From positions 16,455 through 80,454 of the forward strand of contig JACQRW010000007.1 of the NCBI GenBank assembly GCA_016206285.1: DNA of 64,000 nucleotides, written 5' to 3'. The translations under genes were made by a program, and so were the position numbers. This DNA is from Candidatus Sungiibacteriota bacterium. Its GTDB lineage: Bacteria; Patescibacteriota; Minisyncoccia; Sungbacterales; HO2-52-23. The notes under the pieces were generated by a model. The model was not told the origin of the DNA. It saw only the letters and a list, made by a program, of their open reading frames with translations, and did not search any database. This document shows positions 5,070 through 51,779 of this stretch, in pieces; the first letter of the stretch is position 1, and the number at the start of each line of letters is the position of its first letter.

Positions 5070-5071
5070 GA

Positions 5072-5872: not shown

Positions 5873-5880
5873 AAAGTTCT

Positions 5881-5888
5881 TGTATAAT
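5881..5888 (+). promoter_or_regulatory. Candidate extended -10 element (TGTATAAT) upstream of the asnB-like gene
   Basis: tgtataat lies about 125 nt upstream of the ATG at 6012, in a divergent intergenic region. Confidence 0.3.
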
Positions 5889-6011
5889 CAGTAGCACGCA
5901 AAGAGCAGATGGTCAAGTTACGTGCGGGGCAAGAAAGTATATACTTTACATAATGACAATTCATCATTGCGCAACCAAAGGCATGTCAGAAGCGTTTTAA
6001 AAAGAAATCAT

Positions 6012-7790
6012 ATGTGCGGCATTATTGCTTTAACCGGAAACAAGATACGCGAGATATCGCCTTCGCACATTGATGCGATGCTGGACTTGCTTTCCCACCG
6101 CGGGCCCGATGACCGCGGGCTTTTACCATTTTCCTCGTGCATACTGGGACAGACGCGGCTTTCGATCATTGATCTGTCCGGCGGGCATCAGCCCATGAAA
6201 GATAATCAAAAAAATATTGCGGTTACATTCAATGGGGAAATTTACAACTACCGCGAACTCAAAACCGACCTTGAACAAAAGGGGCATGTTTTCTCAACCA
6301 AGTCAGACACTGAAGTGATCCTGAAAGCATATATTCAATACGGCATTGACTGTCCAAAATATCTTGAAGGCATGTTTGCATTTGCACTCTGGGACGAAGA
6401 AAAAAAGATGCTTTTCGGCGCACGGGATCGTTTTGGTGAAAAACCCTTGTACTATGCAAAAACAAAATCAGGAGACTTTATATTCGCATCCGAGATAAAA
6501 GCGCTGCTCGCCTCGGGCACCATTGAGCCGGTTATCAATAAAGAAGCCCTAGACATCTATTTGAGCCTGGCATATGTACCGCCGCACATGACCGTCTATG
6601 AAAATATTTCCGTAGTGCCGCCGGCTTCATGTTTCGTGCTTAAAAACAGCGAGATCAAGATAGAAACATACTGGGAACTCACAAAAAAAGAGGTGTCCGT
6701 TACCTACGCGGACGCCAAAGAGGAAGTAAGAAGGATGCTCGAACAGTCAGTCAAAAAAATGATGGTCGCGGATGTGGAAGTGGGCGCGCTGCTGTCCGGC
6801 GGGGTGGACTCCACATTGGTCACCTGCTTTAGCCAGCAAACATCAAGTTTTCCGATTAAAACTTTTTCAGTCGGGTACGAACACTATATAAATGAACTGC
6901 CGTTTGCCGAACAGGTGTCGAAGAAATTCCACACCGACCACCATACGCTCCAGGCAACCGGAGAGATGGCGGAAAGTTTGCGTATGGTTTGCGGGTCGCT
7001 GGACGAACCTCACGGGGATCCCTCCAATTTTCCCCAATATCTCGTTTCTCAATTCGCCGCCTCAAAAGTAAAAGTGGCTCTTACCGGCGACGGCGCAGAC
7101 GAATTATTCATGGGATACGGCTGGTACTGGAAACACCTCAATCTCTCATGGAAAGCTGATTTTTGGGAAAAGGCATTTCCGCGGCCGTTCAAAAACTTTA
7201 TCCGAAGTATCGAAATCTTCACCGCAACCCAAAAGCGCGGACTGCTCGCCCACTCCCCCCTTCGCGCCGCTGACTTTATTCCGGAACATATTCTGCATGC
7301 GGCCGGAGACGATATCGAAAAAATAAATCTTTTCGATCTCTCTTTTTATCTGCCCGGCAAGCTTTTGTCAAAAGTAGACCGCACCGCCATGATGAGTTCG
7401 CTGGAAACCAGATGTCCGTTTCTTGACCGCGAACTTGCCGAGTTTGTCTATAACCTGCCGCGAAATTTCAAGACGGACAAAAACAGCGGAAAGATCATCC
7501 TAAAAGACATCTTGTCCGATATCATGCCGCGCGATTTCGTATACCGCAAAAAACAGGGATTCGGAGCGCCGGTCAAAGTCTGGCTTGAAATCGAGACCAT
7601 GAGAAAGCTCGTTGCCGAAACCTTTGACAACAATGCGCCATTCTATGAATACATAGATAAAGAAGAGGTGCAGAAACTGCTTAAAAATTTTTACAGCAAA
7701 ACAGACGAGACGGTATATTATAAGATATGGACACTGCTTTGTCTCGGCCTTTGGTTTCAAACTCATCCTTCGACTAGCTCAGGATTGTAA
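6012..7790 (+). CDS. asnB: Asparagine synthase (glutamine-hydrolysing) family amidotransferase (AsnB/WbpS-like)
   Basis: N-terminal MCGI (class II glutamine amidotransferase Cys nucleophile), SGGVDS PP-loop and the whole AsnB architecture. Start taken at the internal ATG encoding MCGIIAL. Confidence 0.85.
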   Translation: MCGIIALTGNKIREISPSHIDAMLDLLSHRGPDDRGLLPFSSCILGQTRLSIIDLSGGHQPMKDNQKNIAVTFNGEIYNYRELKTDLEQKGHVFSTKSDTEVILKAYIQYGIDCPKYLEGMFAFALWDEEKKMLFGARDRFGEKPLYYAKTKSGDFIFASEIKALLASGTIEPVINKEALDIYLSLAYVPPHMTVYENISVVPPASCFVLKNSEIKIETYWELTKKEVSVTYADAKEEVRRMLEQSVKKMMVADVEVGALLSGGVDSTLVTCFSQQTSSFPIKTFSVGYEHYINELPFAEQVSKKFHTDHHTLQATGEMAESLRMVCGSLDEPHGDPSNFPQYLVSQFAASKVKVALTGDGADELFMGYGWYWKHLNLSWKADFWEKAFPRPFKNFIRSIEIFTATQKRGLLAHSPLRAADFIPEHILHAAGDDIEKINLFDLSFYLPGKLLSKVDRTAMMSSLETRCPFLDRELAEFVYNLPRNFKTDKNSGKIILKDILSDIMPRDFVYRKKQGFGAPVKVWLEIETMRKLVAETFDNNAPFYEYIDKEEVQKLLKNFYSKTDETVYYKIWTLLCLGLWFQTHPSTSSGL

Positions 7791-7793
7791 ATC

Positions 7794-8969
7794 ATGTATA
7801 ATCCATCTGAAATCTTTTGGGCATATCGGAACAAAATCACCAACAAACTGTGGGGCATGGTGCATATGCCCGCCCGCAGCACCATTCGACACGCTCATGG
7901 CAGGCAGAAAGGAATTATTCTCATCTCCTATATCACCGAGCCGTTCACGCTGGCGCCGTGGGAAAAGTTTTCCAATTTTCACACCATGTATTGGGAATGC
8001 CGCGAGATCGCGCGCCTGTTCGCGGAAAAAGGATATGCGTCTGACATTGTGAGCGCGGAAAATCTCTCCTTTGTCCCGACCAAACCCTATGCATTTTGCA
8101 TTGATGTGGAAGACGGCCTGCTGCGCCTTTCAAAACATCTTCCCGCCAACTGCAAAAAAATATTCCGTATTCTCAATCCCCATTGGAAAGCGTACAACGA
8201 TGCAGAACAGTTGCGGCTTGACTGGCTTGAAAAACGGCGGGGAGTACGCTTGCTGCCGCACCGCACAAGGCGACCTTCGCAAAATGCCGAGCTTGCGGAC
8301 TTTCTTGAAGGCTTTGGAAACAAAGCCGTATTCGGCACGTTTCGCCAATTCAACAAACCGATATTTTTCGTGCCGATTTCCGCAGTCATCCATTTTGACT
8401 TTCCGGAGAAGAAAGATTTTGCCGCCGCAGCCGAACACTTTATGTGGATAGGCGGAGGAGGGGCAGTACTGAAAGGCCTTGATCTTTGTTTGGAAGCATT
8501 TGCGAAAACGCCCGATCTGCATCTGCACGTATGCGGGCCGATCTACGGTGAGAAAGATTTTACTGACGAGTATAAAAAAGAACTGGAGCAGACCCCGAAT
8601 ATCCATGTGTACGGCAGAATAGACGTAGGCGGCGAACAATTTGCCAAACTTATCGAAACCTGCGGTGCCGTAATCTATCCATCCGGCGGAGAAGGCACCT
8701 CCGGCGCGATTGTGCAGGCCATGCATGCGGGCTTGGTGCCGATCATCACGCACATTACCGGCATACAGGAAGACGCCGGATACATTCAACTGGATGATAA
8801 CCCGACACCAGAGTCCATGGTGCAGGCCGCGCGCGATTTTTCCAACATGCCGCCTGACGAGATCCGTGATCTCTCCAAAAAAATCTGGGGGTACGCGCGC
8901 AAAACGTATACCCGCGAAGAATTCAGCAAGGCGTACAGGCGTTTCATCGAAGACGTGCTAAAATTATAA
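7794..8969 (+). CDS. Glycosyltransferase, GT-B fold (GT4-like C-terminal domain)
   Basis: C-terminal YPSGGEGTSGAIVQAMHAGLVPII motif, the E-x7-E-like region of retaining GT4 enzymes. Confidence 0.7.
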   Translation: MYNPSEIFWAYRNKITNKLWGMVHMPARSTIRHAHGRQKGIILISYITEPFTLAPWEKFSNFHTMYWECREIARLFAEKGYASDIVSAENLSFVPTKPYAFCIDVEDGLLRLSKHLPANCKKIFRILNPHWKAYNDAEQLRLDWLEKRRGVRLLPHRTRRPSQNAELADFLEGFGNKAVFGTFRQFNKPIFFVPISAVIHFDFPEKKDFAAAAEHFMWIGGGGAVLKGLDLCLEAFAKTPDLHLHVCGPIYGEKDFTDEYKKELEQTPNIHVYGRIDVGGEQFAKLIETCGAVIYPSGGEGTSGAIVQAMHAGLVPIITHITGIQEDAGYIQLDDNPTPESMVQAARDFSNMPPDEIRDLSKKIWGYARKTYTREEFSKAYRRFIEDVLKL

Positions 8970-9005
8970 GTATACAAATTCTCACGATCGTGAGAATTTG
9001 TATAC
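8970..9005. promoter_or_regulatory. 36-bp perfect palindrome GTATACAAATTCTCACGATCGTGAGAATTTGTATAC between two glycosyltransferase genes
   Basis: Begins 1 nt after the stop of the upstream gene and ends 9 nt before the next ATG. A second copy of the same architecture occurs at 29596..29631. Confidence 0.55.
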
Positions 9006-9014
9006 TAACGATAC

Positions 9015-17395: not shown

Positions 17396-18385
17396 ATGTC
17401 AAAAATACTTATCACCGGCGGAACCGGATTTATCGGATATCATCTGGCAAAACGCTTGGTCGGCCAGGAGCACGAAGTCGTGCTCGCGGATAATTTTTTC
17501 CGCAGCGAGCGCGATGCCGATCTTATAGCGCTTCTTGAACAGCCCAATATCAAACTCATCGAAGCAGATCTGACTGATCCGGCATTATGGGACGCGCTTG
17601 GCACCGGATATGATTATGTGTACCACCTGGTGGGCATTAACGGGACAAAGCTCTTTTACGAAATCCCCCACGAAGTGCTGCGCATCGGAGTCACTACTAC
17701 GCTCAATGCGCTTGACTGGTTCAGAACCAAAAACAATCAGCCAAACGCGAAGATACTTTATACCTCCTCCAACGAGGCATATGCCGGAGCGCTTGATGCA
17801 TTCGGCAAGCTCTTGATCCCCACGCCGGAAAACGTACCGCTGGTGATCGCCGACCCCTACAACCCGCGGTGGTCGTACGCCGGACAAAAACTCATCGGAG
17901 AGCTTTTGTTCATCCACTATGCAAAAGCATACGGTTTTCGCATGTCCATAGTACGACCGCATAATTTTTACGGCCCGCGCGAGGGATATTTGCACGTGAT
18001 ACCGGAGATTATCGAGCGCATCCACGAGCAGCCCGATCCGTTTCCCATTTTTGGAGCCGATACTACGCGCTCTTTCTGCTATATTGATGACGCAGTGGAA
18101 GCGATCCAGACCGTCATGGAATCGGACAAGACGGATAACGGCACCTACCATATAGGCACGCACGAGGAGACGCTGATTAAAAACCTGATCGAAAATCTGT
18201 TCACGCTCATGAACTGGCATCCGAAAGAATTGGATATTCAAAACTCGCCCGAAGGCAGCGTAAAGCGCCGCCTGGCTGACGTCTCCAAAATCAAGGCCGA
18301 CATTGGATGGGAAGCAAAAATCGGATTGGAAGAAGGTCTGCGAAAAACTATTGAATGGTATACGGCGCATCCGCATAAAAAATAG
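17396..18385 (+). CDS. NAD-dependent epimerase/dehydratase (extended SDR), tandem paralog A
   Basis: ILITGGTGFIGYHL Rossmann motif and catalytic SYAGQK (YxxxK). Confidence 0.8.
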   Translation: MSKILITGGTGFIGYHLAKRLVGQEHEVVLADNFFRSERDADLIALLEQPNIKLIEADLTDPALWDALGTGYDYVYHLVGINGTKLFYEIPHEVLRIGVTTTLNALDWFRTKNNQPNAKILYTSSNEAYAGALDAFGKLLIPTPENVPLVIADPYNPRWSYAGQKLIGELLFIHYAKAYGFRMSIVRPHNFYGPREGYLHVIPEIIERIHEQPDPFPIFGADTTRSFCYIDDAVEAIQTVMESDKTDNGTYHIGTHEETLIKNLIENLFTLMNWHPKELDIQNSPEGSVKRRLADVSKIKADIGWEAKIGLEEGLRKTIEWYTAHPHKK

Positions 18386-19399
18386 ATGTCAAAAATACTT
18401 ATAACCGGCGGGGCCGGTTTTGTCGGATACCATCTGGCAAAACGGCTGGCGGATCAGGAACACGAAATAGTACTCGTTGATAATTTTTCGCGCAACGGAC
18501 GCGATGCCGATTTACTGACCCTGCTTCAACGGCCGAACACCAAGCTTATCGAAGGAGACCTTACCGATCCGGCATCATATGAGAAATTTGGCACCGGATA
18601 TGATTATGTATACCACCTCGCAGGCATCAACGGATTCCGGCAGTTCATGGACATGCCGCATGAAGTGCTGCGAGTCGGCGCTGCCACGGCTTTAAATATC
18701 CTTGACTGGTTCCGGACAAAAAACAATCCGCCGGCAGGCGGACAAGGCGCAAAAATTCTTTTTACCTCAAGCAACGAAGTATTCACCGGAGCACACGAGG
18801 CATTTGGTGCACTGCCCGTTCCCACGCCGGAAAATGTGCCATTGGTGATCGCCGACCCCTACAACCCGCGGTGGTCGTATGCCGGTTCAAAGATCATCAG
18901 CGAATTGTTGTTCATCCACTATGCCAAAGTGTATAACCTGCGCATGGTGATTGTGCGGCTCCACAATCTTTACGGCCCCGGTGCCGGATATGATGCCATG
19001 ATCCCAAAATTCATTGGACGCACTCATAATCGCCTTGACCCGTTCCCCATGTTCGGTCCGGACGATCTCCGCGCATCATGCTATATCGCAGACGCGGTCG
19101 AGGCTATGCAGACAGCCATCGAATCTTCCGCCACTGACGGACAAACATACCATATCGGCGACTCCCGCGAGGCCACGATAAAAACCATTTTGGAAACCAT
19201 GTTTGAGATCATGCAGTGGCATCCGAAAGAATTTGACATCAAACCGTCTCCGAATGGTCCGCCAACTGGCGGATCAACCCGAGATATACTCGACGTCTCC
19301 AAAATCAAGACCGACATTGGATGGGAAGCAAAAACCTCGCTTGAGCAGGGATTACGAAAAACCATCGAGTGGTACCTGGCGCATCCGGCCCAATCCTAA
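18386..19399 (+). CDS. NAD-dependent epimerase/dehydratase (extended SDR), tandem paralog B
   Basis: ILITGGAGFVGYHL and SYAGSK; about 60-65% identical to paralog A over the full length. Confidence 0.8.
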   Translation: MSKILITGGAGFVGYHLAKRLADQEHEIVLVDNFSRNGRDADLLTLLQRPNTKLIEGDLTDPASYEKFGTGYDYVYHLAGINGFRQFMDMPHEVLRVGAATALNILDWFRTKNNPPAGGQGAKILFTSSNEVFTGAHEAFGALPVPTPENVPLVIADPYNPRWSYAGSKIISELLFIHYAKVYNLRMVIVRLHNLYGPGAGYDAMIPKFIGRTHNRLDPFPMFGPDDLRASCYIADAVEAMQTAIESSATDGQTYHIGDSREATIKTILETMFEIMQWHPKEFDIKPSPNGPPTGGSTRDILDVSKIKTDIGWEAKTSLEQGLRKTIEWYLAHPAQS

Positions 19400-21823: not shown

Positions 21824-22005
21824 CCATTGCCCAACCTGCCGAATATGGCACTATATTACCACGTCCCGATACAAAAGTCAAATCTAATCTGGGTGGAAGG
21901 AAAGACAAAAACCGCAGAGCGGATCATGTGGTTTGGCTACAGTCAAATCAAAAACTTTGACGAGACCAAAAGAAAACGCTACACTTGCAGCATAATAAAG
22001 CCCCT

Positions 22006-22914
22006 ATGCCCCCCACCCTTTCCTACATCACCGCAACTAAAAATAAGCTGCCCTATTTTAAACAAGGAATAGAGAGATTGATCGCCCACAAAAAACCGGA
22101 CGAGGAGATTTTGGTTGCTGACGGGGCAAGCACGGACGGAACTCCGGAGTATCTGGCGGAGCTGAAAGCTGCGGGAAAGATTGACTGGTTCGTGTCTGAA
22201 CCGGACTTTGCGGAGTCGCATGCCTTGAACAAGCTTTTCCTGGCGGCACGGGGAGAAGTGATCAAGATCATCAATGACGATGATGCATATTATTTTCCGA
22301 CGATCGAGGCATGCAAGAAATTCATGCTGGAGCATCCGGAGATAGACTTTATGGGTACGGAAGGCGGGTCGTTCAAACATGAAACGCCGGAAAGGCAGGT
22401 GATCCGAAAAGTCGCTGGGTATGAGCAAAATTTCCGGAAGTGGAAGAGCGATCATACGCCGTTCGAGTTTGCGGTATTGGGGCTTATGTTTCGCCGGTCT
22501 TCCCTGCCCGTTTTGGGATTTTGGGATCTCTCGTTCAAAAATGCCGATGCGGAGTATACGTTTCGTTCCACCGCAGGCCCGGCAAAGCTTGCGTGGTGCC
22601 TGAATCCATCGTTTGTATTCATCCGCACCAAAGAAGGCGTGACCATGAACAATCTGAAGCGGATGCGTGAAGAGGCGCTGCGCTTGCGCAAATTTTATCT
22701 AGGCGAAAACCCGCCATCTCCTCTCTTGATCGCGGTCAAACGCCCGTTTCGGAACATGCGCGAGATGATGAGCGCACGAAAAAGCGAAGTGCTGAGAAAA
22801 GCGCCGGGTTCCGCATCTGATACACGCGGAGAATCATGGGCTGAACTGTATCAAGAAGGAGAGCAGTGGCTGATCGAGCAAAACCGCGGAAAAGAATTTG
22901 AATTTCTTTCGTAG
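22006..22914 (+). CDS. Glycosyltransferase family 2-like, tandem paralog A
   Basis: LSYITATKNKLPYFKQGIERLIAHKKPDEEILVADGASTDGT GT2 N-terminal signature. Start taken at the ATG for MPPTLSY, by alignment with paralog B. Confidence 0.65.
   Translation: MPPTLSYITATKNKLPYFKQGIERLIAHKKPDEEILVADGASTDGTPEYLAELKAAGKIDWFVSEPDFAESHALNKLFLAARGEVIKIINDDDAYYFPTIEACKKFMLEHPEIDFMGTEGGSFKHETPERQVIRKVAGYEQNFRKWKSDHTPFEFAVLGLMFRRSSLPVLGFWDLSFKNADAEYTFRSTAGPAKLAWCLNPSFVFIRTKEGVTMNNLKRMREEALRLRKFYLGENPPSPLLIAVKRPFRNMREMMSARKSEVLRKAPGSASDTRGESWAELYQEGEQWLIEQNRGKEFEFLS
22081..22180. repeat. About 100-nt tract nearly identical (4 mismatches) to 22990..23089 in the tandem GT2 paralog
   Basis: Direct comparison: atcgcccacaaaaaaccgga..ggagattttggttgc.gacggggcaagcacggacggaactccggagtatctggcggagctgaaagc.gcgggaaa.at. 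Confidence 0.8.
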
Positions 22915-22917
22915 AAT

Positions 22918-23823
22918 ATGACAACCCTTTCCTATATCATCGCCACGCGCAACAAGCTCCCCTATCTCAAAGCGGGGCTTGAAAAACTCATCGCCCACAA
23001 AAAACCGGATGAGGAGATTTTGGTTGCGGACGGGGCAAGCACGGACGGAACTCCGGAGTATCTGGCGGAGCTGAAAGCAGCGGGAAAAATCGAGTATTTT
23101 GTATCGGAGAAAGATTTCGGGCTTGCGCATGCGCTGAATAAATTGGTGCTGGTTTCAAACGGTACGCTTCTGAAATATCTGACCGATGACGACGCCTTTG
23201 ATTATGGAGTAATTCAAAAATGCAGAACGTTCATGCTTGAGCACCCGGAAGTTGATCTCGTGAACACCGAGGGCGGATCGCTCAACGATCCATCCCGCAT
23301 GGCTGCATACCAAGACCCGCTGCAGGTAGTGCGGGCGCTGAACTATGAAGAGCCGTACAAACAATGGCAACAAGACCACACGCCTTTTTATTTTTGCGAT
23401 CTGGGTATCATATTCCGGCGCTCGTCGCTGCCGGTGACGGGTTTTTGGAATGTGCTGTTCCCCGGACCCGACATTGAACTCTCCCTCCGGACAAGCAAAG
23501 GACGGGTAAATATCGCATGGTACACCGGCTACTCGTACGTCAATATCAGCAACCCCCAGAGCGTGAGCGTGGTATTCATGCAAAAAACGAAAAGACTGAC
23601 GGAGCGGCTGGACAAGCTCTATTTTGATAAAAATCCGGACTCTCTCATTGTGCGGAAGCTGAAAGTGCTGCGCAATAAACTGCGGAGCGGCTTGATGCCT
23701 AAAACCTCCGGCACATCAATACCCTTTCAGGAACAATGGCCGGAGCTTATCAAGACATCGGAAAAATGGCTTGAGCTTAAAAATCTGCAAAAAGAACCTG
23801 AGTTCCTCGTAAAGCCCCTATGA
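22918..23823 (+). CDS. Glycosyltransferase family 2-like, tandem paralog B
   Basis: LSYIIATRNKLPYLKAGLEKLIAHKKPDEEILVADGASTDGT; shares a ~100-nt near-identical tract with paralog A. Confidence 0.65.
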   Translation: MTTLSYIIATRNKLPYLKAGLEKLIAHKKPDEEILVADGASTDGTPEYLAELKAAGKIEYFVSEKDFGLAHALNKLVLVSNGTLLKYLTDDDAFDYGVIQKCRTFMLEHPEVDLVNTEGGSLNDPSRMAAYQDPLQVVRALNYEEPYKQWQQDHTPFYFCDLGIIFRRSSLPVTGFWNVLFPGPDIELSLRTSKGRVNIAWYTGYSYVNISNPQSVSVVFMQKTKRLTERLDKLYFDKNPDSLIVRKLKVLRNKLRSGLMPKTSGTSIPFQEQWPELIKTSEKWLELKNLQKEPEFLVKPL

Positions 23824-24893
23824 ATCTTCTTGAGTATCAGGGCAAAGAACTGTTGAAAAAATATGCGATCCCGGTACCGGATTCTTTTTTGATGTATCCG
23901 GAAAGCTTTCTTCCCGATCTTTCGATTCCATTTTTTCTCAAATCCCAGGTTGCGGCCGGAGACAGAAATAAATATGGGGGCATCGTGCAGGTCGAATCGG
24001 CGGCTGATTTTATATCCGCAAAAGAAAAACTTTTCAAAACTCCGATTGCGGGTCTCAAACCGGACGTACTTTTGGCCGAAAAGAAAATCGGGTATACGGG
24101 GGAGCTCTATCTCTCATTCAGCTATGATACCCGCACGCGTGCTCCCGCTCTGTCGCTCGCGCGCCAAGGAGGCAGCGGCGTAGCCGAGGCATGCGTGTTT
24201 CCGATTGACATTGTTACGGGACTTCAAGATTTTTTTATCCGAGATGCCCTGCTTTCTGCAGGGCTTCCGCTCCATGCGGAATTGAAAGGGATCATACAAA
24301 AACTCTGGCGCCTGTTCGAATCAGAACACGCTCTTGTTGCCGAGATCAATCCCCTTTTTGCCACAGGAGAAACGGGCTACATTGCGGGTGATGCAAAAAT
24401 AATCCTGGACGACTACCATGCAAATCCCGAATACCGTCCGTTTATTGATCTTCCGGGCGACATCGCCATTATCGCATCGGGCGGGGGCGCGTCCATGCTC
24501 AATATTGACGCGCTTATGCATGCCGGAGGCAAACCCGCCAATTATGCGGAATACTCCGGCAATCCGCCGGCAAGCGTGGTGGAAGAACTTACAGTCCGCA
24601 TTTTGACCAAACCGGGCTTAAAAGGCTGCTGGGTGATCGGCGGCACGGCAAATTTTACCGATATCTATGAAACCATGCTCGGCTTTGTCGCCGGACTCCG
24701 CAAGATCAGCCCCAAGCCGGATTTTCCCATTGTGATCCGCCGCGACGGCCCGCGACGTGAAGAGGCATTTCAAATGCTTCAGGAAGTTGCTTCGCGCGAG
24801 GGATATACCTTCTCGCTTTTCGGCCCTGAAGTTCCTATGGCATACACGGCAGAATATCTTGTGAAAAAAATATATGAGCATTCTGATAGATAA
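23820..24893 (+). CDS. Succinyl-CoA-synthetase beta-subunit-like ATP-grasp protein (citryl-CoA synthetase/ACL small-subunit-like)
   Basis: MNLLEYQGKELLKKYAIPVP N-terminus typical of SucC/ACL ATP-grasp; about 357 aa. Overlaps the next gene (coupled). Confidence 0.7.
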   Translation: MNLLEYQGKELLKKYAIPVPDSFLMYPESFLPDLSIPFFLKSQVAAGDRNKYGGIVQVESAADFISAKEKLFKTPIAGLKPDVLLAEKKIGYTGELYLSFSYDTRTRAPALSLARQGGSGVAEACVFPIDIVTGLQDFFIRDALLSAGLPLHAELKGIIQKLWRLFESEHALVAEINPLFATGETGYIAGDAKIILDDYHANPEYRPFIDLPGDIAIIASGGGASMLNIDALMHAGGKPANYAEYSGNPPASVVEELTVRILTKPGLKGCWVIGGTANFTDIYETMLGFVAGLRKISPKPDFPIVIRRDGPRREEAFQMLQEVASREGYTFSLFGPEVPMAYTAEYLVKKIYEHSDR

Positions 24894-25785
24894 AAATACC
24901 AAGGTGCTGGTGCAGGGCATTACCGGAAAAGAGGGGGGACGCGCGGCTGAAGATATGCTCGCCTACGGTACGGCTGTCATAGGGGGCACGTCTCCGGGAA
25001 AAGGCGGCGCGCGCGAAAAAAATAATCTGCCTGTTTTCAACAGCGTGGCTGAGGCAATGGCCGCATACCCGGATATCGGCGCGTCCATGATCGCGGTTCC
25101 GGCTCCGTTTGTGTTCGATGCGGCTATGGAGGCGATCGCATCGCGAATCCCCCTTATCGTGATCTTGTCGGAAAAAGTCCCGGTCAGCCACGTTGCCAAG
25201 ATAATCGCGCACGCAAAATTGAATGGCGTGCGGATCGTGGGGCCAAGCTCCATCGGGATCATCTCGCCGGGACGCGCAAAGATCGGCAGCGTGGGCGCGG
25301 CGGGCATCGCTGACCGGATATTTTCACCGGGCACGGTGGGCGTGATCTCAAAAAGCGGAGGCATGACGGCAGAACTGTCGCGCATACTTACCGATGCGGG
25401 CATTGGCCAGAGCACGGCAATCGGCATAGGCGGAGATCTGCTGATCGGCACCGATTTTGTTGACGCCGCACTTTTATTCGAGCAAGATAAAGACACCAAA
25501 GCTTTGGCTATCTTCGGAGAAATCGGCGGCACCTATGAAGAACAGCTTGCGGACGCGATCCGGCAAAAGAAGATCACCAAACCGGTTGTCGCGCTTATCG
25601 CCGGGCAATTTTCCGAACAGCTTGCTACAGGAGCAGTATTGGGCCATGCCGGAGCGATCGTGATGAAAGGAGCGGGGTCGTTTACGTCCAAAATCAAAGC
25701 GCTGCGCGAGGCCGGAGCGATCGTAGCCGAGACTCCCGAAGATATTCCGGTACACCTTCAGCAACTTTTAGGTAAAACCATATGA
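24874..25785 (+). CDS. Succinyl-CoA-synthetase alpha-subunit-like CoA-binding/ligase protein with phosphohistidine loop
   Basis: VLVQGITGKEGG CoA-binding motif and GAVLGHAGAIV (GHAGA catalytic His loop). Confidence 0.8.
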   Translation: MSILIDKNTKVLVQGITGKEGGRAAEDMLAYGTAVIGGTSPGKGGAREKNNLPVFNSVAEAMAAYPDIGASMIAVPAPFVFDAAMEAIASRIPLIVILSEKVPVSHVAKIIAHAKLNGVRIVGPSSIGIISPGRAKIGSVGAAGIADRIFSPGTVGVISKSGGMTAELSRILTDAGIGQSTAIGIGGDLLIGTDFVDAALLFEQDKDTKALAIFGEIGGTYEEQLADAIRQKKITKPVVALIAGQFSEQLATGAVLGHAGAIVMKGAGSFTSKIKALREAGAIVAETPEDIPVHLQQLLGKTI

Positions 25786-26486
25786 AAATAAAAACAGAGA
25801 TCAGCGCTTCGCAAGATCACGAACATAATATCCGCGGGAAACCGCTTGGCGATCTTATCCGGAATCATTCGTTTGTCGAAACTCTTTTTTTGCTTTTTCG
25901 CGGCAACATGCCAAACAAAGCTGAAGAGGATCTCCTGAATGCCCTGCTGGTCAGCGCAGCAGAACATGATATTGAGGCACCTTCTCTCTTCGTACCCAGG
26001 ATAAGCACATCTGTCGGCAATCCGCCGCAGGCCGCACTCGCCGCTGGCATCTTGTCCATCGGTCCCAGCCATGGAGGCGCGGGATGGGAGGCGGCCCGGC
26101 TCCTTGCAGGCCCGGAAACGCCGCAAGAGATCGTAACAAGATTTTTAAAAGAACATGCGCCGATACCCGGTTACGGGCACAGGATATATAAAGATGCAGA
26201 CCCGAGAGTTTCCGTCATCGAAGAAAAGATCCGCGTATCCGGCGTTTCGGGGACGCATTTTGACCGCGCCCGGGCGATTGAAAAAGAACTTGCAACGCAA
26301 AAAGGAAAACATATTCCCTTGAACATAGACGGCGCTTTTGCCGCATGCGTTCTTGACCTTGGTTTTGCGCCGGAAACCGCCCTGGAACTTTTCATTCTTG
26401 CCCGCATCGCAGGCATGTCGGCGCATATCAACGAAGAACGGCAACAGCATAATCCGTACTATCGGCTTGAAAATGGTTCATTATGA
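25782..26486 (+). CDS. Citrate-synthase-fold protein (citryl-CoA-lyase / ATP-citrate-lyase C-terminal-domain-like)
   Basis: PGYGHRIYKDADPRV matches the citrate-synthase active-site signature. 234 aa, the size of Ccl-type citryl-CoA lyases. Confidence 0.7.
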   Translation: MKIKTEISASQDHEHNIRGKPLGDLIRNHSFVETLFLLFRGNMPNKAEEDLLNALLVSAAEHDIEAPSLFVPRISTSVGNPPQAALAAGILSIGPSHGGAGWEAARLLAGPETPQEIVTRFLKEHAPIPGYGHRIYKDADPRVSVIEEKIRVSGVSGTHFDRARAIEKELATQKGKHIPLNIDGAFAACVLDLGFAPETALELFILARIAGMSAHINEERQQHNPYYRLENGSL

Positions 26487-27199
26487 AAAAGATTATCCGA
26501 AAATTCATGCCGGAGCTCGTTCTTTTTTTGCGCGTGCAGTATCTCAAAGCAAAGCAAAACAGGCATGAGCTGCAAAAATACGCAAGCCTTCAGGCTGCAG
26601 ACTCTGTGTCCGTATCCGGAACATGCGCATTCGGCGATCACACCAAGGCCGGAGAACGCACCCGCCTGTTTGACGTTTCGCTCGGGAACCATTCGTATTT
26701 TATGGAGGATTGCTTTGCCAGAAATTGCACGATCGGCGCGTACTGTTCCATTGCTCCTCATGCGGTCATCGGTCTGGGGCAGCACCCTGTGAACTTCGTC
26801 TCAACCCATCCTGCATTTTATTTCGATACAAAACAAAAAATGTTTACCTACGCGGACGAAAAATACGTCCAAGAATTTCCGCAAAGCGCGCATATCATGA
26901 TCGGCAATGATGTATGGATCGGACAGGGAGCGCTGGTAAGAGACGGCGTTGCCATAGGCAACGGCGCGATTATCGGCGCCGGAGCCGTAGTCGTAAAAGA
27001 TGTCGAGCCGTACAGTATTGTGGGCGGGGTTCCGGCGCGTCTGATCCGCTATCGTTTTGAACCCGAAGAAATAGCATTTTTGCAAAAATTCAAATGGTGG
27101 GAAAAAAACGAAGCATGGCTGAAAGAGAATTGGAAGTACTTTTCGGACATCAAAAAATTGATGGCGAAATACGCAAAAACCGGCATGCCTGATGCCTAA
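26483..27199 (+). CDS. Hexapeptide-repeat (left-handed beta-helix) acetyltransferase, xenobiotic/Vat/CatB-like
   Basis: Repeated [LIV]GxxxxIG hexapeptides (IGNDVWIGQGALV, IGNGAIIGAGAVV); ATGA overlap with the upstream gene. Confidence 0.8.
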   Translation: MKKIIRKFMPELVLFLRVQYLKAKQNRHELQKYASLQAADSVSVSGTCAFGDHTKAGERTRLFDVSLGNHSYFMEDCFARNCTIGAYCSIAPHAVIGLGQHPVNFVSTHPAFYFDTKQKMFTYADEKYVQEFPQSAHIMIGNDVWIGQGALVRDGVAIGNGAIIGAGAVVVKDVEPYSIVGGVPARLIRYRFEPEEIAFLQKFKWWEKNEAWLKENWKYFSDIKKLMAKYAKTGMPDA

Positions 27200-27247: not shown

Positions 27248-28039
27248 ATGTTTTATACATTACGGGTGCGGGCGCGCAATAATTCATTTCTCAAACGCGC
27301 CGTGCGCAAAACAAAAAAAATAATCGGGGTTAAAGACGCATCAAGCGATTTTTTTGATAATGCCGCGCTGGTAAAGAAATACACACCGGGAAAATCATTT
27401 GCCGATATAGGCTGCATGTGGGGCGTAGACGGATTTTTTTCTTTTCTGGCGGAAGAAAACGGAGCCGCCAAAGTAATGTCGGTTGATATATATCCGGAAA
27501 GCGCGAAGTTTTCAGAAGAAAAAGAACGCCGCAATTCCAAGATACAATTTGTGCAGGGAGATATTAATCTGCCGGACGTAACTGATACCATAGGCATATG
27601 CGACGTGGTATTTTGCTCCGGAGTGCTGTATCATACCCCGGACCCGGTCCATATGCTGACCCGCCTGCGCGTGATTTGCGGCGAAACGCTTATCCTGAAT
27701 ACCGCATCAATCCCGGAAATGCCCGGCATAAGAAACGCGGCTGTCTTTTATCCGTTTCTAAACGCCAAGCAGCGGAAAATCTGGAACCGGCATATCGGCA
27801 GCCAAAAAGGTATCACTGGACCATACGAGCCCGAAAGCGGTTATGGAAATTGGATGTGGGGCATGACTCCAAGCGCAATCGAATCCATGCTTCAATGCGC
27901 AGGATTTAAAGTGCAAGAGCGTTATATTTCACCGTTTCGCTCCGTATTCGTATGCAAAACAATTCCCATCCAATTCGTTGCCGAATCCGGCGAGTGGACC
28001 ACGCCCAAAAGCGGCGACTCTCTCAAATTTAGAAAATAG
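27248..28039 (+). CDS. Class I SAM-dependent methyltransferase
   Basis: DIGCMWGVDG SAM motif I; acidic residue after beta-2 (SVDIY); about 263 aa. Confidence 0.65.
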   Translation: MFYTLRVRARNNSFLKRAVRKTKKIIGVKDASSDFFDNAALVKKYTPGKSFADIGCMWGVDGFFSFLAEENGAAKVMSVDIYPESAKFSEEKERRNSKIQFVQGDINLPDVTDTIGICDVVFCSGVLYHTPDPVHMLTRLRVICGETLILNTASIPEMPGIRNAAVFYPFLNAKQRKIWNRHIGSQKGITGPYEPESGYGNWMWGMTPSAIESMLQCAGFKVQERYISPFRSVFVCKTIPIQFVAESGEWTTPKSGDSLKFRK

Positions 28040-28824: not shown

Positions 28825-29576
28825 AAAAACGTATGCATATAAAGCTCTCCTCGCATCGTACCGTCAAATTCATTCTTTTTCAGCGCTCGCAATATTTGCT
28901 TTGGCGCCGCAATAAAACTATACAGCGATTTGCTCGCGCGTTGCCCAGACGGCTTGCGTTCAGCCTTGAGGCGCTGGCAAGCAACTTCAATGCAACCGTA
29001 TCTCTGGAGGCGCTATTTACGAGAAAAAGCGTAGAAAAACTTTTCAGTGAAGAGATGACGCTGGAATACAACCAAATGAAACCCTATCTGCCGGCGCACG
29101 CCCGCACGATTCTTGATATCGGAGCAGGCGTAGGCGGCATTGACATACTGCTTGGCAAGCACTATGAGCAGGACAAGCCTATGATCTATCTGCTCGATAA
29201 GACAGAAATGCCTGCCAAGGTGTATTATAGCTTGCGGGAAAAAGGATGTTTTTATAACTCGCTGGAGCTTGGCCGGGATATGCTGGTTGAAAACGGCATC
29301 AAACCCGAACAAATTTTTTTGCAAGAGGCAACCGATGACAACCGCATTATCTCCGACACGAAATTCGATCTGATTGTCTCCCTTATCTCATGGGGATTCC
29401 ACTATCCCATCGCAACTTACCTTGACCAGGTATATGACAAGCTGGCCGAAGGCGGGGCGGTGATCACGGATGTGCGGAGACACGGCAACGGCATTGAGCT
29501 GCTGCAAAAAAAGTTTCCGAAAACCAAGATTATTTTTGAAGCGCAAAAACATGTTCGCATCGTTGCGTGGAAATAA
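28821..29576 (+). CDS. Class I SAM-dependent methyltransferase, paralog A
   Basis: ILDIGAGVGGIDILL motif I; LAEGGAVI. Confidence 0.6.
   Translation: MKKRMHIKLSSHRTVKFILFQRSQYLLWRRNKTIQRFARALPRRLAFSLEALASNFNATVSLEALFTRKSVEKLFSEEMTLEYNQMKPYLPAHARTILDIGAGVGGIDILLGKHYEQDKPMIYLLDKTEMPAKVYYSLREKGCFYNSLELGRDMLVENGIKPEQIFLQEATDDNRIISDTKFDLIVSLISWGFHYPIATYLDQVYDKLAEGGAVITDVRRHGNGIELLQKKFPKTKIIFEAQKHVRIVAWK
29082..29212. repeat. 131-nt tract 100% identical to 30867..30997 in the methyltransferase paralog
   Basis: ccctatctgccggcgcacgcccgcacgattcttgatatcggagcaggcgtaggcggcattgacatactgcttggcaagcactatgagcaggacaagcctatgatctatctgctcgataagacagaaatgcc occurs in both copies. Confidence 0.85.
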
Positions 29577-29595
29577 CAAAAGTAATTATCAGTCA

Positions 29596-29631
29596 GTATA
29601 CAAATTAAAACGATCGTCGAAATTTGTATAC
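29596..29631. promoter_or_regulatory. Second copy of the 36-bp GTATACAAATT-N14(CGATCG core)-AATTTGTATAC dyad element
   Basis: GTATACAAATTAAAACGATCGTCGAAATTTGTATAC has the same 11-bp arms and CGATCG centre as 8970..9005, and the same position between a stop codon and the next start (ATG at 29649). Confidence 0.55.
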
Positions 29632-29648
29632 TAAGAGAGAACCATAAT

Positions 29649-30620
29649 ATGAAGAAACATCTGATCATCCTCCGCCATAACAGCGGCAAGGGCGGCCACG
29701 GGCGGCTCGCAAACCAGCTTTGGAATTTTATGAGCATCTATGCGTATGCGCTTGAACGCGGATACGATCTTGAAAATTATTCGTTCTTTGAATACCATGA
29801 TTGCTTTCAGATTCCTCCGGTGCGAAATTTTCCGGTGCGGTGCCTTTTTTTCTCGCCATTTCCTTTTCTTGCAAAAAAGTTCGGGCAAACGCGTGCAGCA
29901 ATTTTTACCCGCAAAGTCTACAAGCTGTATGTAATGGCGGTCAGACTAAGACATGGCAAAACTTTGTTGAATTCCTACAACTCTCCCGATATTGCGGGAA
30001 TCTTTTATCTTCCGCCCTCCGAACCGGCCAGACCCGCGCTTCAGAAACTCGAGGACAACCCGCGCATCAAAAACATATACTTTGACGGCTGGCTTTTCCG
30101 AAACCCGGCCGGTGTAATGAAATATCACTCCGAAATTCTTGAATACTTCAAGCCAAAAGACGAGACGCGCAAAACGATAGCAGCATTTATGGAACCGCTG
30201 AAAACACAGTACGACAACCTGGTTGGCGTTCATATCCGGCAGGATGATTATAAAACGTTCAAAGGAGGCCGGTACTTTGTGGAGCAGGCGCGTATTCGGG
30301 AGATCCTTGACGAATATCTGCGGGAATTCAAAAAAGATCCGGAGCATACCTGTTTTATCATTACCTCGAACGGTCCCATTAAACGCGAGATATTTCAGGG
30401 ATTACATTTTGAAATAAGCAATCTCGGATTCATTGAAGATTTGTTCTTGCTTGCCTCATGCACTGCCATAATCGGCTCCGATTCAAGCTTTGGCAATTTC
30501 GCAGCCTACTACGGCAACACGCCGCATATTGTCTTTCAAAAAGAACCCATGGACTGGGAATACTACGCCGGAAAAACAAAATATTTCTGGAACAAGTATT
30601 GCACACTCGTGCATTTTTAA
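29649..30620 (+). CDS. Putative glycosyltransferase with GT11-like motifs (divergent)
   Basis: GKGGHGRLANQLWNFMSIYAYA resembles GT11 motif I (GGLGNQ.FQYA). C-terminal IIGSDSSFGNFAAYYG resembles the GT11 SSFSWWGAWL motif. Weak assignment. Confidence 0.4.
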   Translation: MKKHLIILRHNSGKGGHGRLANQLWNFMSIYAYALERGYDLENYSFFEYHDCFQIPPVRNFPVRCLFFSPFPFLAKKFGQTRAAIFTRKVYKLYVMAVRLRHGKTLLNSYNSPDIAGIFYLPPSEPARPALQKLEDNPRIKNIYFDGWLFRNPAGVMKYHSEILEYFKPKDETRKTIAAFMEPLKTQYDNLVGVHIRQDDYKTFKGGRYFVEQARIREILDEYLREFKKDPEHTCFIITSNGPIKREIFQGLHFEISNLGFIEDLFLLASCTAIIGSDSSFGNFAAYYGNTPHIVFQKEPMDWEYYAGKTKYFWNKYCTLVHF

Positions 30621-30650
30621 TTGCCATGCAAGCCCTTTTTTAGTACACTT

Positions 30651-31355
30651 ATGACTATGATTATCCCGAATAAAGCAATTAAATACATACTATTCCAGCG
30701 GACGGAATATCTGCTCTCCATGAAAAGTCCGTTATTAAACCGTTTCGTGGTACGCGTACCATCGCGCATGTACAATCTGGCAGTTACACTGGAGGCTCTC
30801 CTGACCAAACCGCGGGTCAAGCGTCTGTTTCAAGAAGACATGGAGCGCGAGTATGCCATTTTGAAGCCCTATCTGCCGGCGCACGCCCGCACGATTCTTG
30901 ATATCGGAGCAGGCGTAGGCGGCATTGACATACTGCTTGGCAAGCACTATGAGCAGGACAAGCCTATGATCTATCTGCTCGATAAGACAGAAATGCCCAA
31001 AAAAGTCTACTACGGCCTGGAACAAAAGGGCTGTTATTACAACTCGCTTTCTTTGGCAAAAGATATGCTCGTTCAAAATGGCCTTACTGCCGGCCATATT
31101 ATCACTCAAGAAGCAGACAATGATTACCGAATCAATTTTGATGCAAAATTCGATCTGGTGATCTCGCTGATTTCATGGGGATTTCACTATCCTATTGCGA
31201 CCTATCTTGATCAGGTTTACGCGCTGCTGGCACCTGGCGGCATACTTATCCTTGACGTGCGCAAGGGCACAGAAGAAGAGATAATGAAAAAATTCGGTAA
31301 CGCAACAAAAATTTTTGAAGCGCGGAAATATTTCAGAGTCATGGCGCGAAAATAG
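30651..31355 (+). CDS. Class I SAM-dependent methyltransferase, paralog B
   Basis: ILDIGAGVGGIDILL; contains a 131-nt tract 100% identical to paralog A. Start taken at the first ATG (MTMIIP); the ORF-track start at 30621 is a TTG. Confidence 0.6.
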   Translation: MTMIIPNKAIKYILFQRTEYLLSMKSPLLNRFVVRVPSRMYNLAVTLEALLTKPRVKRLFQEDMEREYAILKPYLPAHARTILDIGAGVGGIDILLGKHYEQDKPMIYLLDKTEMPKKVYYGLEQKGCYYNSLSLAKDMLVQNGLTAGHIITQEADNDYRINFDAKFDLVISLISWGFHYPIATYLDQVYALLAPGGILILDVRKGTEEEIMKKFGNATKIFEARKYFRVMARK

Positions 31356-39888: not shown

Positions 39889-41016
39889 CTATACTGTACA
39901 TATCTCAAAACTCTTCCGGTACAATTCAAGATATTCGGCTTCGCTGTGGGGTTTTATTTCGGCAACCGTACGGCGGGCAGCATCTACAAATGCGCGCCGC
40001 TTTTCCGGATGGCGATAGAGATCAAGGACCGCATCCAGAAACGCCGGAGCGTCTCCAACCGGCACTACTCGGCCATTCACGCCGTCTTTGACCACCTCTC
40101 CGGCCAACCCTACATCCGTCATCACCAGCGACACTCCGGCCGCCATTGCTTCTATCGCAACCAATCCCCACCCTTCGTAGTTTGACGAAACCAACACAAT
40201 ATCGAAACATTTATAAAACGATGCAAGATCGTTGCGCCACGGTTCAATGAGAACATTTTTCTCCAATTGATAATTGATAATTGATAATTGATAATTTTTC
40301 CTGTCCGGTCCATCGCCGACCAGCACGAGTACCGTGCGAGGTTCTTGCTTCACCAACTCAGCCATCATCTCGATCAACATGCTGAAATTCTTTTCCTTGT
40401 CTACAAAACGCCCGACTGCGATCATACGAAAGGCATATTCTTTGAGACGGGACAGATCCTCAGCCTTGGGAGATGAATAAGAGAACGACGCAAGATCTGT
40501 ATATATCGGCAATACGGAAATTTTCGATTTCGGGATACGCAACCCGGCAAGCAATGAACGCTTGATGCGCTCGCTCACTACGCGTACGCAATCAGCCCGC
40601 GGGAGCAGAAATCGAGCCAGTAGAACACGAAAATATTCCTTCAGGGATGCCCGCCGGTACAGCGGATTCAAGACATCGGTATGCACTTGCAGCTGCAGTT
40701 TAATGCCAAAACGCCGGGAAATATGAAAAGCAATCAATCCGACTTCGTCAGGCCCTTGTGTGCTAACCACGTCAAAATGAACGGAGCGAGCAAGCGAACG
40801 CGCAATCGTACGCATGCGCCAGCGGCCCATAAATGGATTTTTAGCCGATGCCGGATACAGAAAAAGTTTCCCGCTTTGCTGATTTTCAGACTCGGGCCCT
40901 GCCAATACTACGACATGCAACTCATCAAAAAGCTCCGCATAGCGCTCTATGCGTTTTCGCGCGTTGCTTCCGGCAACGCAGATATTCGGGTCTTCTGAAA
41001 GCATTAAAATCTTCAT
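39889..41016 (-). CDS. Glycosyltransferase family 4 (contains an internal 7-nt x4 tandem repeat)
   Basis: GLVAIEAMAAGVSLV GT4 C-terminal motif. AATTGAT x4 at 40264..40296 encodes NYQLSIINYQL. Confidence 0.75.
   Translation of the reverse strand: MKILMLSEDPNICVAGSNARKRIERYAELFDELHVVVLAGPESENQQSGKLFLYPASAKNPFMGRWRMRTIARSLARSVHFDVVSTQGPDEVGLIAFHISRRFGIKLQLQVHTDVLNPLYRRASLKEYFRVLLARFLLPRADCVRVVSERIKRSLLAGLRIPKSKISVLPIYTDLASFSYSSPKAEDLSRLKEYAFRMIAVGRFVDKEKNFSMLIEMMAELVKQEPRTVLVLVGDGPDRKNYQLSIINYQLEKNVLIEPWRNDLASFYKCFDIVLVSSNYEGWGLVAIEAMAAGVSLVMTDVGLAGEVVKDGVNGRVVPVGDAPAFLDAVLDLYRHPEKRRAFVDAARRTVAEIKPHSEAEYLELYRKSFEICTV
40264..40296. repeat. Tandem heptanucleotide repeat (AATTGAT)x4 plus partial, inside a GT4 coding sequence
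   Basis: Direct reading of the sequence: aattgataattgataattgataattgataatt. Confidence 0.8.
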
Positions 41017-50942: not shown

Positions 50943-51779
50943 TTACTTGAGAGAATAGATCGTCCAACGTTTTTCGCCTTCTTTTTTAAGGACATCTTTT
51001 TGCACCAGATCGTGCAGATCGCGTTGGATAGTTTTAGCGCTTACATCAGCAAGCAGGGTCTGGAAATCACTTATTTTTGCCTGGGACACCTTTTCTACAA
51101 AGCTAAGTATATCTTTTTGGCGACCGGTTATACTGGCATTTTGACCGGAGTGGCGTAGCAAAGGTTTTTGAGAAACTTGCTTCTCACTGTCTTTGGCGGG
51201 GCCGTCAGAATCAATACGCCTGTTGGGCATGGACATTTCCGGACCGCTTTGTCTTGTCGCCTTCTGATTATGCCCGGTATATTCTGCGTTCGTTCGGTCA
51301 GGCGAAGCGTGCTGCTTCCCATGACTCTCACTCACTTGATTATACTCTGTATATTCGGCGTTCGCTCGGCCTCGAGAAATGGGTTTCTCGCGGCTCTCAC
51401 TCACTTGATTATAACCCGCTGCATCGGGGTTCCAGTCACGATTTTGGGAAATATTGTTCACGGCAAGTTCCTGCCTGAAAAAATGTTCAAGCGCTTCATA
51501 CTCGCGTTCAAGGATAGTCAGGTTGATCGGCCGGACCAGCCGCATGGCACGGCTCACGCGCAAATACCCTTTTATGGTTTCAACCCTGGCAAGCACACTA
51601 AGAGCCTCCGCTTCATGACTGCCGGCATAATCGTATTCGGTGACATTTCCAAAAATTTCGTTTGCCTTTTCCCGAAGCTGCCGCTTGAGCGCCTCCCCCT
51701 GCGGAAAAAAATCCGTTACGCGGTAGAGCGCCAGGGTGAGTTCAAACGCTTTGCGATGCAATTCTTGCGAAGTGTTCAT
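50943..51779 (-). CDS. Four-helix-bundle (23S-rRNA-IVS/Avd-family-like) domain fused to an internal 25-aa tandem repeat and a C-terminal winged-helix DNA-binding domain
   Basis: N-terminal LHRKAFELTLALYRVTDFFPQGE resembles the TIGR02436 family. YNQVSES...NAEYT is repeated twice (~75-nt DNA repeat at about 51290..51440). C-terminal ILSFVEKVSQAKISDFQTLLADVSAKTIQRDLHDLVQKDVL is a DeoR-like HTH. Confidence 0.5.
   Translation of the reverse strand: MNTSQELHRKAFELTLALYRVTDFFPQGEALKRQLREKANEIFGNVTEYDYAGSHEAEALSVLARVETIKGYLRVSRAMRLVRPINLTILEREYEALEHFFRQELAVNNISQNRDWNPDAAGYNQVSESREKPISRGRANAEYTEYNQVSESHGKQHASPDRTNAEYTGHNQKATRQSGPEMSMPNRRIDSDGPAKDSEKQVSQKPLLRHSGQNASITGRQKDILSFVEKVSQAKISDFQTLLADVSAKTIQRDLHDLVQKDVLKKEGEKRWTIYSLK

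Follow-up and report, generated by a model that had tools for sequence, protein, structure and literature searches.

Probable short-patch gene conversion between diverged methyltransferase paralogs in a surface-glycan locus of a Candidatus Sungiibacteriota bacterium

How can two methyltransferase genes that have diverged over most of their length share a stretch of perfectly identical DNA? The question is raised by a 64,000-nucleotide (nt) stretch of contig JACQRW010000007.1 from a Candidatus Sungiibacteriota bacterium, referred to below as the window. In it, two genes for paralogous class I S-adenosylmethionine (SAM)-dependent methyltransferases, MT-A and MT-B, lie on either side of a GT11-like glycosyltransferase gene and carry the same 131-nt tract (Table 1). 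We found that the tract very probably results from short-patch, non-reciprocal ectopic gene conversion, with MT-A as the source and MT-B as the target. The mosaic structure of MT-B, the conflict between the relationships of its tract and those of its flanks, and the one-way character of the exchange all point to this conclusion.

Mosaic structure of MT-B

The two copies of the tract match at 131 of 131 positions and the flanking base differs at each end, so that the shared stretch is exactly 131 nt long. They are direct repeats on the same strand with a start-to-start spacing of 1785 nt, and both are read in frame 0 of intact open reading frames (ORFs). In a codon alignment MT-A and MT-B are 65% identical at the nucleotide level overall, 57.1% identical outside the tract, and 37% identical at third codon positions outside it. 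Permuting the 245 sites that differ between the genes 100,000 times gave no identical run of more than 40 nt; 131 consecutive matches remain improbable (P-value ~6e-10) even if a local identity of 85% is assumed. No other exact repeat in the window comes close to the tract in length (the runner-up measures 50 nt), and the first 30 nt of the tract occur solely at the two known positions when both strands of the window are scanned. Protein constraint does not explain the identity, since the most conserved MT-A/MT-B block outside the tract, SLISWGFHYPIATYLDQVY, is the same in protein and different in DNA (64–84% identity in 45-nt windows over the block). The identity thus goes beyond both chance and protein constraint, which is the mosaic structure expected of ectopic gene conversion. 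In its operational definition, gene conversion is recognized by a mosaic target together with an exact match in a source paralog (PMC12046097), and the tract has both.

A preliminary description of this locus, made from the letters of the sequence, had reported the 131-nt identity amid divergent flanks and the peptide encoded by it. The first is a base-for-base match and the second is right, with the initial K and the final P of the peptide coming from differing codons just outside or at the tract edge. The copies were also said to bracket a 1-kb cassette. They do bracket one, but its size was underestimated: the intervening segment is 1654 nt long (3' part of MT-A, 364; spacer, 72; GT11-like gene, 972; spacer, 30; 5' part of MT-B, 216), and the unit of recombination would be 1785 bp.

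Judged by its motifs, the tract encodes the SAM-binding core of the enzymes, from the GxGxG of motif I through the acidic LLD strand. In profile matches its motif I, ILDIGAGVGG, is aligned to LLDIGCGWG of 5z9o, and motif I of 3g5l is matched as well; the tract is the only part of this methyltransferase family with detectable sequence similarity to solved methyltransferases. The GxGxG of motif I, the acidic residue that ends strand 2 (ILDIGAGVGG…LLD) and a Rossmann-like fold assign the proteins to the class I methyltransferases. An AlphaFold model of MT-B (predicted local distance difference test, pLDDT, 70.6; poor in the tract) supports only the general class I Rossmann methyltransferase fold, and the Foldseek matches of the same model are RsmC, TehB and O-methyltransferases with a template modelling (TM) score of about 0.35.

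Table 1. Window coordinates of the genes, repeat copies and local elements discussed here, and of the Logan contigs that align to the locus
Feature	Position	Strand	Remarks
Tract copy 1, probable donor, in MT-A	29082..29212	+	Codons 88-131 of MT-A; encodes (K)PYLPAHARTILDIGAGVGGIDILLGKHYEQDKPMIYLLDKTEM(P)
Tract copy 2, probable recipient, in MT-B	30867..30997	+	Codons 73-116 of MT-B; A-type sequence, probably in place of ancestral B-type
MT-A, class I SAM-dependent methyltransferase paralog, 251 amino acids	28821..29576	+	ORF, weak Pfam Methyltransf_23/MTS
MT-B, paralogous methyltransferase, 234 amino acids	30651..31355	+	ORF, Pfam; B-type everywhere but in the tract
GT11-like glycosyltransferase between the copies	29649..30620	+	Pfam Glyco_transf_11, E=3.7e-10
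Segment between the copies	29213..30866	+	3' part of MT-A, spacer with dyad, GT11-like gene, 5' part of MT-B
Second, older conversion block in GT2a	22081..22170	+	Partner 22990-23079 in GT2b, the adjacent tandem paralog
Palindromic dyad, MT-A–GT11 spacer, outside the tract	29595..29632		AGTATACAAATT-N14-AATTTGTATACT
Contig L081, SRR12113385	23049-29111		99.98%, one 1-nt gap
Contig L082, SRR12113383	25047-29111		Exact over the aligned part
Contig L080, SRR12113385	29183-30896		Exact; 30 nt of the tract at both ends
Contig L084, SRR12113385	30968-38544		Exact

Orthologous loci and the direction of transfer

We compared the window with the four other related genomes that were recovered, L001/L005 (GCA_964371935.1), L004, L078 and L079. 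In DNA they match the window, and one another, at ~75–80% identity and thus represent separate species-level lineages. The order A–GT11(–B) is kept in 4/4 of them, with the GT11 gene at the same position. The comparison of A with B tracts is limited to L001 and L004; in L078 and in L079 just one of the two genes is complete. L001 and L004 have no tract common to their two genes: the longest exact run between A and B is 13 nt, and across the first 90 nt of the tract the A and B genes of unconverted orthologue pairs are 63–67% identical. Comparison with orthologous loci had been proposed as a check in the preliminary description, and its outcome, both genes kept in L001 and L004 without the tract, indicates a lineage-specific conversion.

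Outside the tract, MT-B of the window resembles its B orthologues, both in the 5' part (72–80% identity to B versus 49–55% to A orthologues) and in the 3' part (68–76% versus 61–66%). Over the first 90 columns of the tract it is 100% identical to MT-A of the window, 72–77% identical to the other A genes and 64–69% identical to the B orthologues. The same columns of MT-A are 72–77% identical to the A orthologues, as is the remainder of that gene, and the tract is therefore native A sequence. At the protein level, MT-A is identical to P0011 and has the orthologues P0012, P0014, P0015, P0019, P0020 and P0021, while MT-B is identical to P0001. All B orthologues (9/9) read GCGVAG…DVLL and all A orthologues (6/6) read GAGVGG or GAGMGG…D(I/V); MT-B of the window carries the A-type GAGVGG…DILL. 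It is nevertheless B-type at 41 of the 44 strictly A/B-diagnostic columns, and one of the three exceptions is the sole diagnostic column inside the tract, where it is A-type. Compared with its nearest B orthologue (P0002/L078, 82% amino-acid identity), MT-B differs within the tract at 36/131 nt and 10/45 amino acids.

Quartet site patterns against L001 and L004 agree with this picture. Sites of the orthology pattern prevail over those of the concerted pattern along nearly the whole alignment, with totals of 100 versus 21. In the two bins that lie wholly inside the tract, the number of orthology-pattern sites is 0, and this holds for the window genome only: the L001/L004 control quartet retains 5–9 orthology-pattern sites per 60 columns across the tract. 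Phylogenetic conflict of the kind expected of ectopic gene conversion is thus present, with the tract grouping by genome and the flanks by orthology. The exchange was also non-reciprocal, as the tract is A-type in both genes and no B-type tract is found anywhere in the window.

The broader searches covered genomes, contigs and proteins. A protein-guided scan of the species genomes in GTDB yielded 73 loci, which come from many phyla; the A–GT11–B arrangement is present only in the L001 genome, and at none of the other loci of the scan is there a long exact run between A and B. Exact scans for the tract in genome and metagenome contig collections gave no match, and neither of them returned the window's own sequence or a close relative with the tract. 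Exact look-ups of MT-A, MT-B and P0001 in the contig index gave no match, and look-ups of neighbouring genes succeeded.

Overall, these data argue for a transfer from A into B, a direction that we add to the recent gene conversion claimed in the preliminary description; its recency is borne out relative to paralog and species divergence. From the distribution of tract types among orthologues, the conversion is specific to the lineage of the window and postdates the separation of this lineage from P0002/L078, its nearest B orthologue. The absence of any difference in 131 nt implies a pairwise divergence below about 2.3% at 95%, and the event is recent when set against the ~25% by which the closest related genomes diverge in DNA.

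Mechanistically, a piece of MT-A no shorter than ~100 nt and no longer than 131 nt would have been copied over the homologous stretch of MT-B, 1785 bp downstream. The left edge of the tract falls in codons for KP(Y/H)LP and the right edge in codons for (I/L)LLDKTEMP; both strings are conserved in both paralog lineages, and no other codon strings are locally conserved. Homology-directed integration in Bacillus subtilis falls log-linearly up to 15% divergence, beyond which only micro-homologous integration of short segments is observed (bioRxiv 10.1101/2020.05.13.090589). Since the paralogs are far too diverged for ordinary homology-driven exchange (exact runs of at most 13 nt in unconverted orthologue pairs, ~40% divergence), the patch most probably passed from one tandem gene to the other through two template switches or by a patch repair bounded by microhomology, and classical long-homology exchange is less likely; we offer this mechanism as a conjecture. 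The patch would have been tolerated because the swapped cofactor-binding module does the same job, SAM binding, in both enzymes, which makes ten simultaneous amino-acid changes plausibly acceptable, and the substrate-facing N- and C-terminal parts would have stayed B-type. As a by-product, the event would have left a 131-bp direct repeat around the segment formed by the 3' part of MT-A, the GT11-like gene and the 5' part of MT-B.

Two further observations concern exchange between A and B genes. A 41-nt exact run between MT-B of the window and the A gene of L001 was considered as a trace of another exchange and rejected: it sits in the invariant WGFHYPIATYLDQV motif, where many cross-pairs have exact runs of 20–32 nt, and we therefore treat it as constraint plus chance. 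Separately, MT-A of the window and the B genes of the clade formed by the window, L078 and P0003 have 'QDKP' in common and lack the 2-codon insertion of the other B genes, which hints at a possible earlier exchange at the same site.

Weighing the conversion against its alternatives

Several points weigh against gene conversion or limit the data behind it. The pre-conversion MT-B has to be inferred from orthologues that are only ~75–80% identical in DNA, and among the genomes recovered there is no sister strain with an unconverted MT-B. The low homology of the flanks is unusual for RecA-mediated conversion. The Logan assemblies, made at k=31 from runs SRR12113383 and SRR12113385, represent the same population as the metagenome-assembled genome (MAG) that contains the window, and their contigs probably derive from the same reads; they rule out an artefact of the assembler without amounting to an independent sample, and they fix the branch points rather than the identity of the tract interior.

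Could the repeat be a functional device instead? Recombination between the two copies would delete or amplify the GT11 cassette and fuse or duplicate the methyltransferases, giving on/off or copy-number glycan variants within the population. We consider this unlikely, although it fares better than the other alternatives. Two 131-bp copies do flank the cassette as direct repeats 1785 bp apart, long enough for RecA-type exchange, and both recombinant genes are predicted to be in frame: a deletion would remove 1785 bp and the GT11-like gene and leave a hybrid of the A N-terminus and the B C-terminus (249 amino acids), and a duplication would double the 1785 bp and create a B/A hybrid (236 amino acids). 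The read graph, X-T-(Y-T)n-Z, fits any n, a minority of n=0 included, and there is real population heterogeneity elsewhere in the locus, namely the poly-A 8/9 polymorphism at 27313–27320. However, neither a variant junction nor a hybrid protein nor a deleted contig came to light, with the proviso that k=31 contigs are blind to copy number and to minority deletions. The predicted hybrids are absent from a collection of 15 billion proteins (a search of low power) and from the 120 listed of the 336 homologues of the family. The repeat is an accident of one lineage and does not recur with the cassette in relatives, as the related loci that carry both genes (L001 and L004) lack it. The order A–GT11(–B) is kept in every related genome recovered; these genomes lack the 131-bp repeat and so say little about its consequences. 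Repeat-mediated deletion in bacteria is expected to be rare, and such a deletion would be irreversible and hence not a switch.

The preliminary description had gone further and proposed on/off or copy-number variation of the GT11 cassette. No data support this, nor do they refute it, the k=31 graph being the same for 0, 1 or more copies. Its more modest suggestion, that the repeats could mediate deletion or duplication of the cassette, is sound as far as mechanics go, with both hybrids in frame, and finds no sign of occurrence. A 131-bp repeat should allow rare RecA-type deletion or tandem duplication, but nothing indicates its use or selection. If the repeat caused loss of the cassette, surface-glycan composition would vary within the population.

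Still less probable is an artefact of assembly or polishing, in which the true tract of MT-B is B-type and the A tract was threaded in through a chimeric path or by polishing with mis-mapped reads. The source is indeed a MAG, the tract is near the length of short reads so that spanning evidence is limited, and the exact look-ups of MT-A and MT-B gave no second full-length assembly. The k=31 assembly of the two runs, however, puts branch points exactly at the four tract edges. Each Logan contig starts or stops exactly 30 nt (k-1) inside a tract copy, which is how a de Bruijn graph behaves at a true exact repeat in the reads. The unique contigs for the A 5' side, the cassette and the B 3' side each hold 30 nt of the same tract; in the read graph, the 5' flanks of A and B enter the same tract start, and the tract end leads to the 3' flanks of both. 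A chimeric path would need k-mers in common at both edges, and the A- and B-type tracts of orthologues share at most 13 nt. A collapsed repeat, the artefact that the preliminary description had named as fatal to its reading, would give one copy rather than two in-frame copies, and breaks at the tract edges are what both runs contain. More generally, such tracts break short-read assemblies, as here where all k=31 contigs stop at the tract, and mask copy-number or deletion variants.

Hardly credible, finally, is nucleotide-level selection on an RNA or DNA element embedded in the tract, or a young duplication of MT-A and MT-B with fast-diverging flanks: nothing specific speaks for selection, the tract being merely more GC-rich (54%) than the remainder of MT-B (44%), and its nucleotide sequence is not conserved across genomes, since it differs in both sets of orthologues (those of A are just 72–77% identical to it, and some of those of B have a 2-codon insertion), while no Rfam family matches in the window and the A and B lineages are older than the divergence of the five species-level genomes, and also than that of more distant members of the family.

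The glycan locus and comparison with known systems

Gene conversion, the reading that we prefer for the 131-nt tract, has also affected a neighbouring pair of genes. The tandem GT2 genes at 21985–22914 (GT2a) and 22918–23823 (GT2b) are 57% identical in DNA overall and 96.7% identical in a 90-nt block, which contains a 50-nt exact run (22120 versus 23029) and codes for the nucleotide-sugar-binding region DGxSTDGT. Set against the L001 orthologues (4774–5700 and 5697–6608), the block contains 10 sites of the concerted pattern and 0 of the orthology pattern, and the 14 nt upstream of it show the orthology pattern only. From these site patterns, the block is a second, older conversion tract, with concerted evolution in two genomes, those of the window and L001. 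With this older patch next to the methyltransferases, short-patch conversion recurs in the glycan locus, in two paralog pairs and each time within a cofactor- or nucleotide-binding module. A more general proposal is that Patescibacteria glycan loci undergo recurrent microhomology-bounded short-patch conversion, which homogenizes only the cofactor- or nucleotide-binding modules of ~40%-diverged tandem paralogs and lies outside the canonical RecA range. We regard this as doubtful but worth stating: if true, it would imply a relaxed or different recombination route in reduced genomes, and it would seed direct repeats as a side effect and make glycan cassettes structurally unstable.

Another tandem pair, the GDP (guanosine diphosphate)-mannose-dehydratase/epimerase paralogs at 17396–18385 and 18386–19399, is 69% identical in DNA and has a 37-nt exact run (17841 versus 18843); the L001 pair, at the equivalent position (LVIADPYNPR), matches over a run of 26 nt. 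The 37-nt run could be either one more small conversion tract or the effect of constraint alone.

All these genes belong to a surface-glycan locus that extends over about 45 kb and comprises a Wzt-type ATP-binding cassette (ABC) ATPase, a rhamnosyl O-methyltransferase/CmcI-like gene, GDP-sugar dehydratase/epimerase pairs, a C-methyltransferase, GT2, GT4, GT11 and PMT_2 genes, and four methyltransferases in a row. At 99–1828 the ATPase, which has a Wzt_C carbohydrate-binding domain, is followed by the rhamnosyl O-methyltransferase/CmcI-like gene; the pair suggests an ABC-transporter-dependent glycan with a methylated chain end, which fits the many methyltransferases of the locus. At 23820–27199, within the glycan cluster, lie genes for citryl-CoA (coenzyme A) synthetase-like subunits (ATP-grasp plus citrate-binding; CoA-ligase alpha), a citryl-CoA lyase and a hexapeptide acetyltransferase. 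This set is kept in L079 (103–2416), absent in L001 and found at 772–4151 of L081; it looks as though it served specifically to make acetyl-CoA from citrate for the O-acetylation of sugars, in a genome of the Candidate Phyla Radiation (CPR) with reduced metabolism.

MT-A (MBI4224907.1 of NCBI, HY617_01105) and MT-B (MBI4224909.1) are annotated on a 104,717-bp host contig of a 'Candidatus Sungbacteria bacterium' MAG. They belong to an unnamed class I SAM-dependent methyltransferase family for which the scores of Pfam Methyltransf_23 and MTS are below the gathering score, and an NCBIfam search gave no family for MT-A, MT-B or the GT11-like gene. The family is widespread across bacterial phyla, with 336 homologues and related loci in many phyla. 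MT-A has an A-specific 10-residue insertion in its N-terminal helical region.

Several small elements accompany these genes. The dyad in the spacer between MT-A and the GT11-like gene (RNA fold z = -3.8) is an imperfect copy of a perfect 38-nt palindrome, AGTATACAAATTCTCACGATCGTGAGAATTTGTATACT, at 8969–9006; the palindrome lies 9 nt upstream of a GT2 gene and the dyad 17 nt upstream of the GT11-like gene. The dyad occurs in L001 (8962–8997) but not in L004, L078 or L079, in which the GT11 start directly adjoins the A stop, and it may be operator-like or a small inserted element. The poly-A at 27313–27320 lies in a methyltransferase gene (27248–28039) and is A8 in the MAG and in SRR12113383 and A9 in contig L081 of SRR12113385 (~4266–4274). 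The A9 form ends the reading frame from the ATG at 27248 after 28 codons, which makes the poly-A a candidate for slipped-strand on/off variation of a glycan methyltransferase; no other actual heterogeneity was observed in the locus. At 40265–40289 the heptamer AATTGAT is repeated in tandem (x 3.5) inside a GT4 ORF (39889–41016, minus strand), within the most AT-rich part of the window (38–40 kb, GC 41%). Three diverged copies of a ~48-nt unit with a 69–72-nt period, at 51244–51432 in an ORF without a Pfam match (50943–51779, minus strand), are probably an internal protein repeat.

If our reading of the methyltransferase tract is right, the locus offers a well-resolved natural gene conversion in an uncultivated CPR bacterium, with donor, recipient, end points and protein module identified. 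It would mean that a functional module can pass between paralogs even when they have hardly any long homology, and that this has occurred in two adjacent paralog pairs of one glycan locus. To our knowledge, which does not rest on an exhaustive search, such conversion between paralogs has not been described in Patescibacteria (CPR).

Interlocus gene conversion between bacterial paralogs is familiar from tufA/tufB in Salmonella and from rRNA operons. It has also been found for the PE/PPE and PE_PGRS genes of Mycobacterium tuberculosis (PMC12046097). As in these systems, the event considered here combines non-reciprocal copying, a mosaic target, an exact tract in the source and a phylogenetic conflict between tract and flanks, and the GT2 pair shows the concerted evolution known from classical paralog conversion. 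In the classical cases, however, the paralogs are near-identical or repeat-rich, whereas the partners here are 57% identical outside the tract, with runs of at most 13 nt in unconverted pairs; the short patch, moreover, coincides with one cofactor-binding module, and the host belongs to the Patescibacteria. The locus resembles micro-homologous integration in B. subtilis (bioRxiv 10.1101/2020.05.13.090589), with partners too diverged for log-linear recombination and ends in short conserved strings. The B. subtilis system, in contrast, takes exogenous single-stranded DNA and integrates micro-segments under 10 nt, whereas the partners here are intrachromosomal tandem paralogs and the patch measures about 100–131 nt.

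Direct repeats also underlie duplication-based capsule phase variation in Streptococcus pneumoniae and amplification of the cap locus in Haemophilus influenzae. As there, the repeats here flank glycan genes and recombinants would alter the glycan. Unlike in those two systems, no variants are observed, the repeat would be the by-product of a single conversion, a deletion would be irreversible, and no recombinase or insertion sequence (IS) element takes part. Overall, the 131-nt tract is a clean example of a well-known process and not a new kind of switch.

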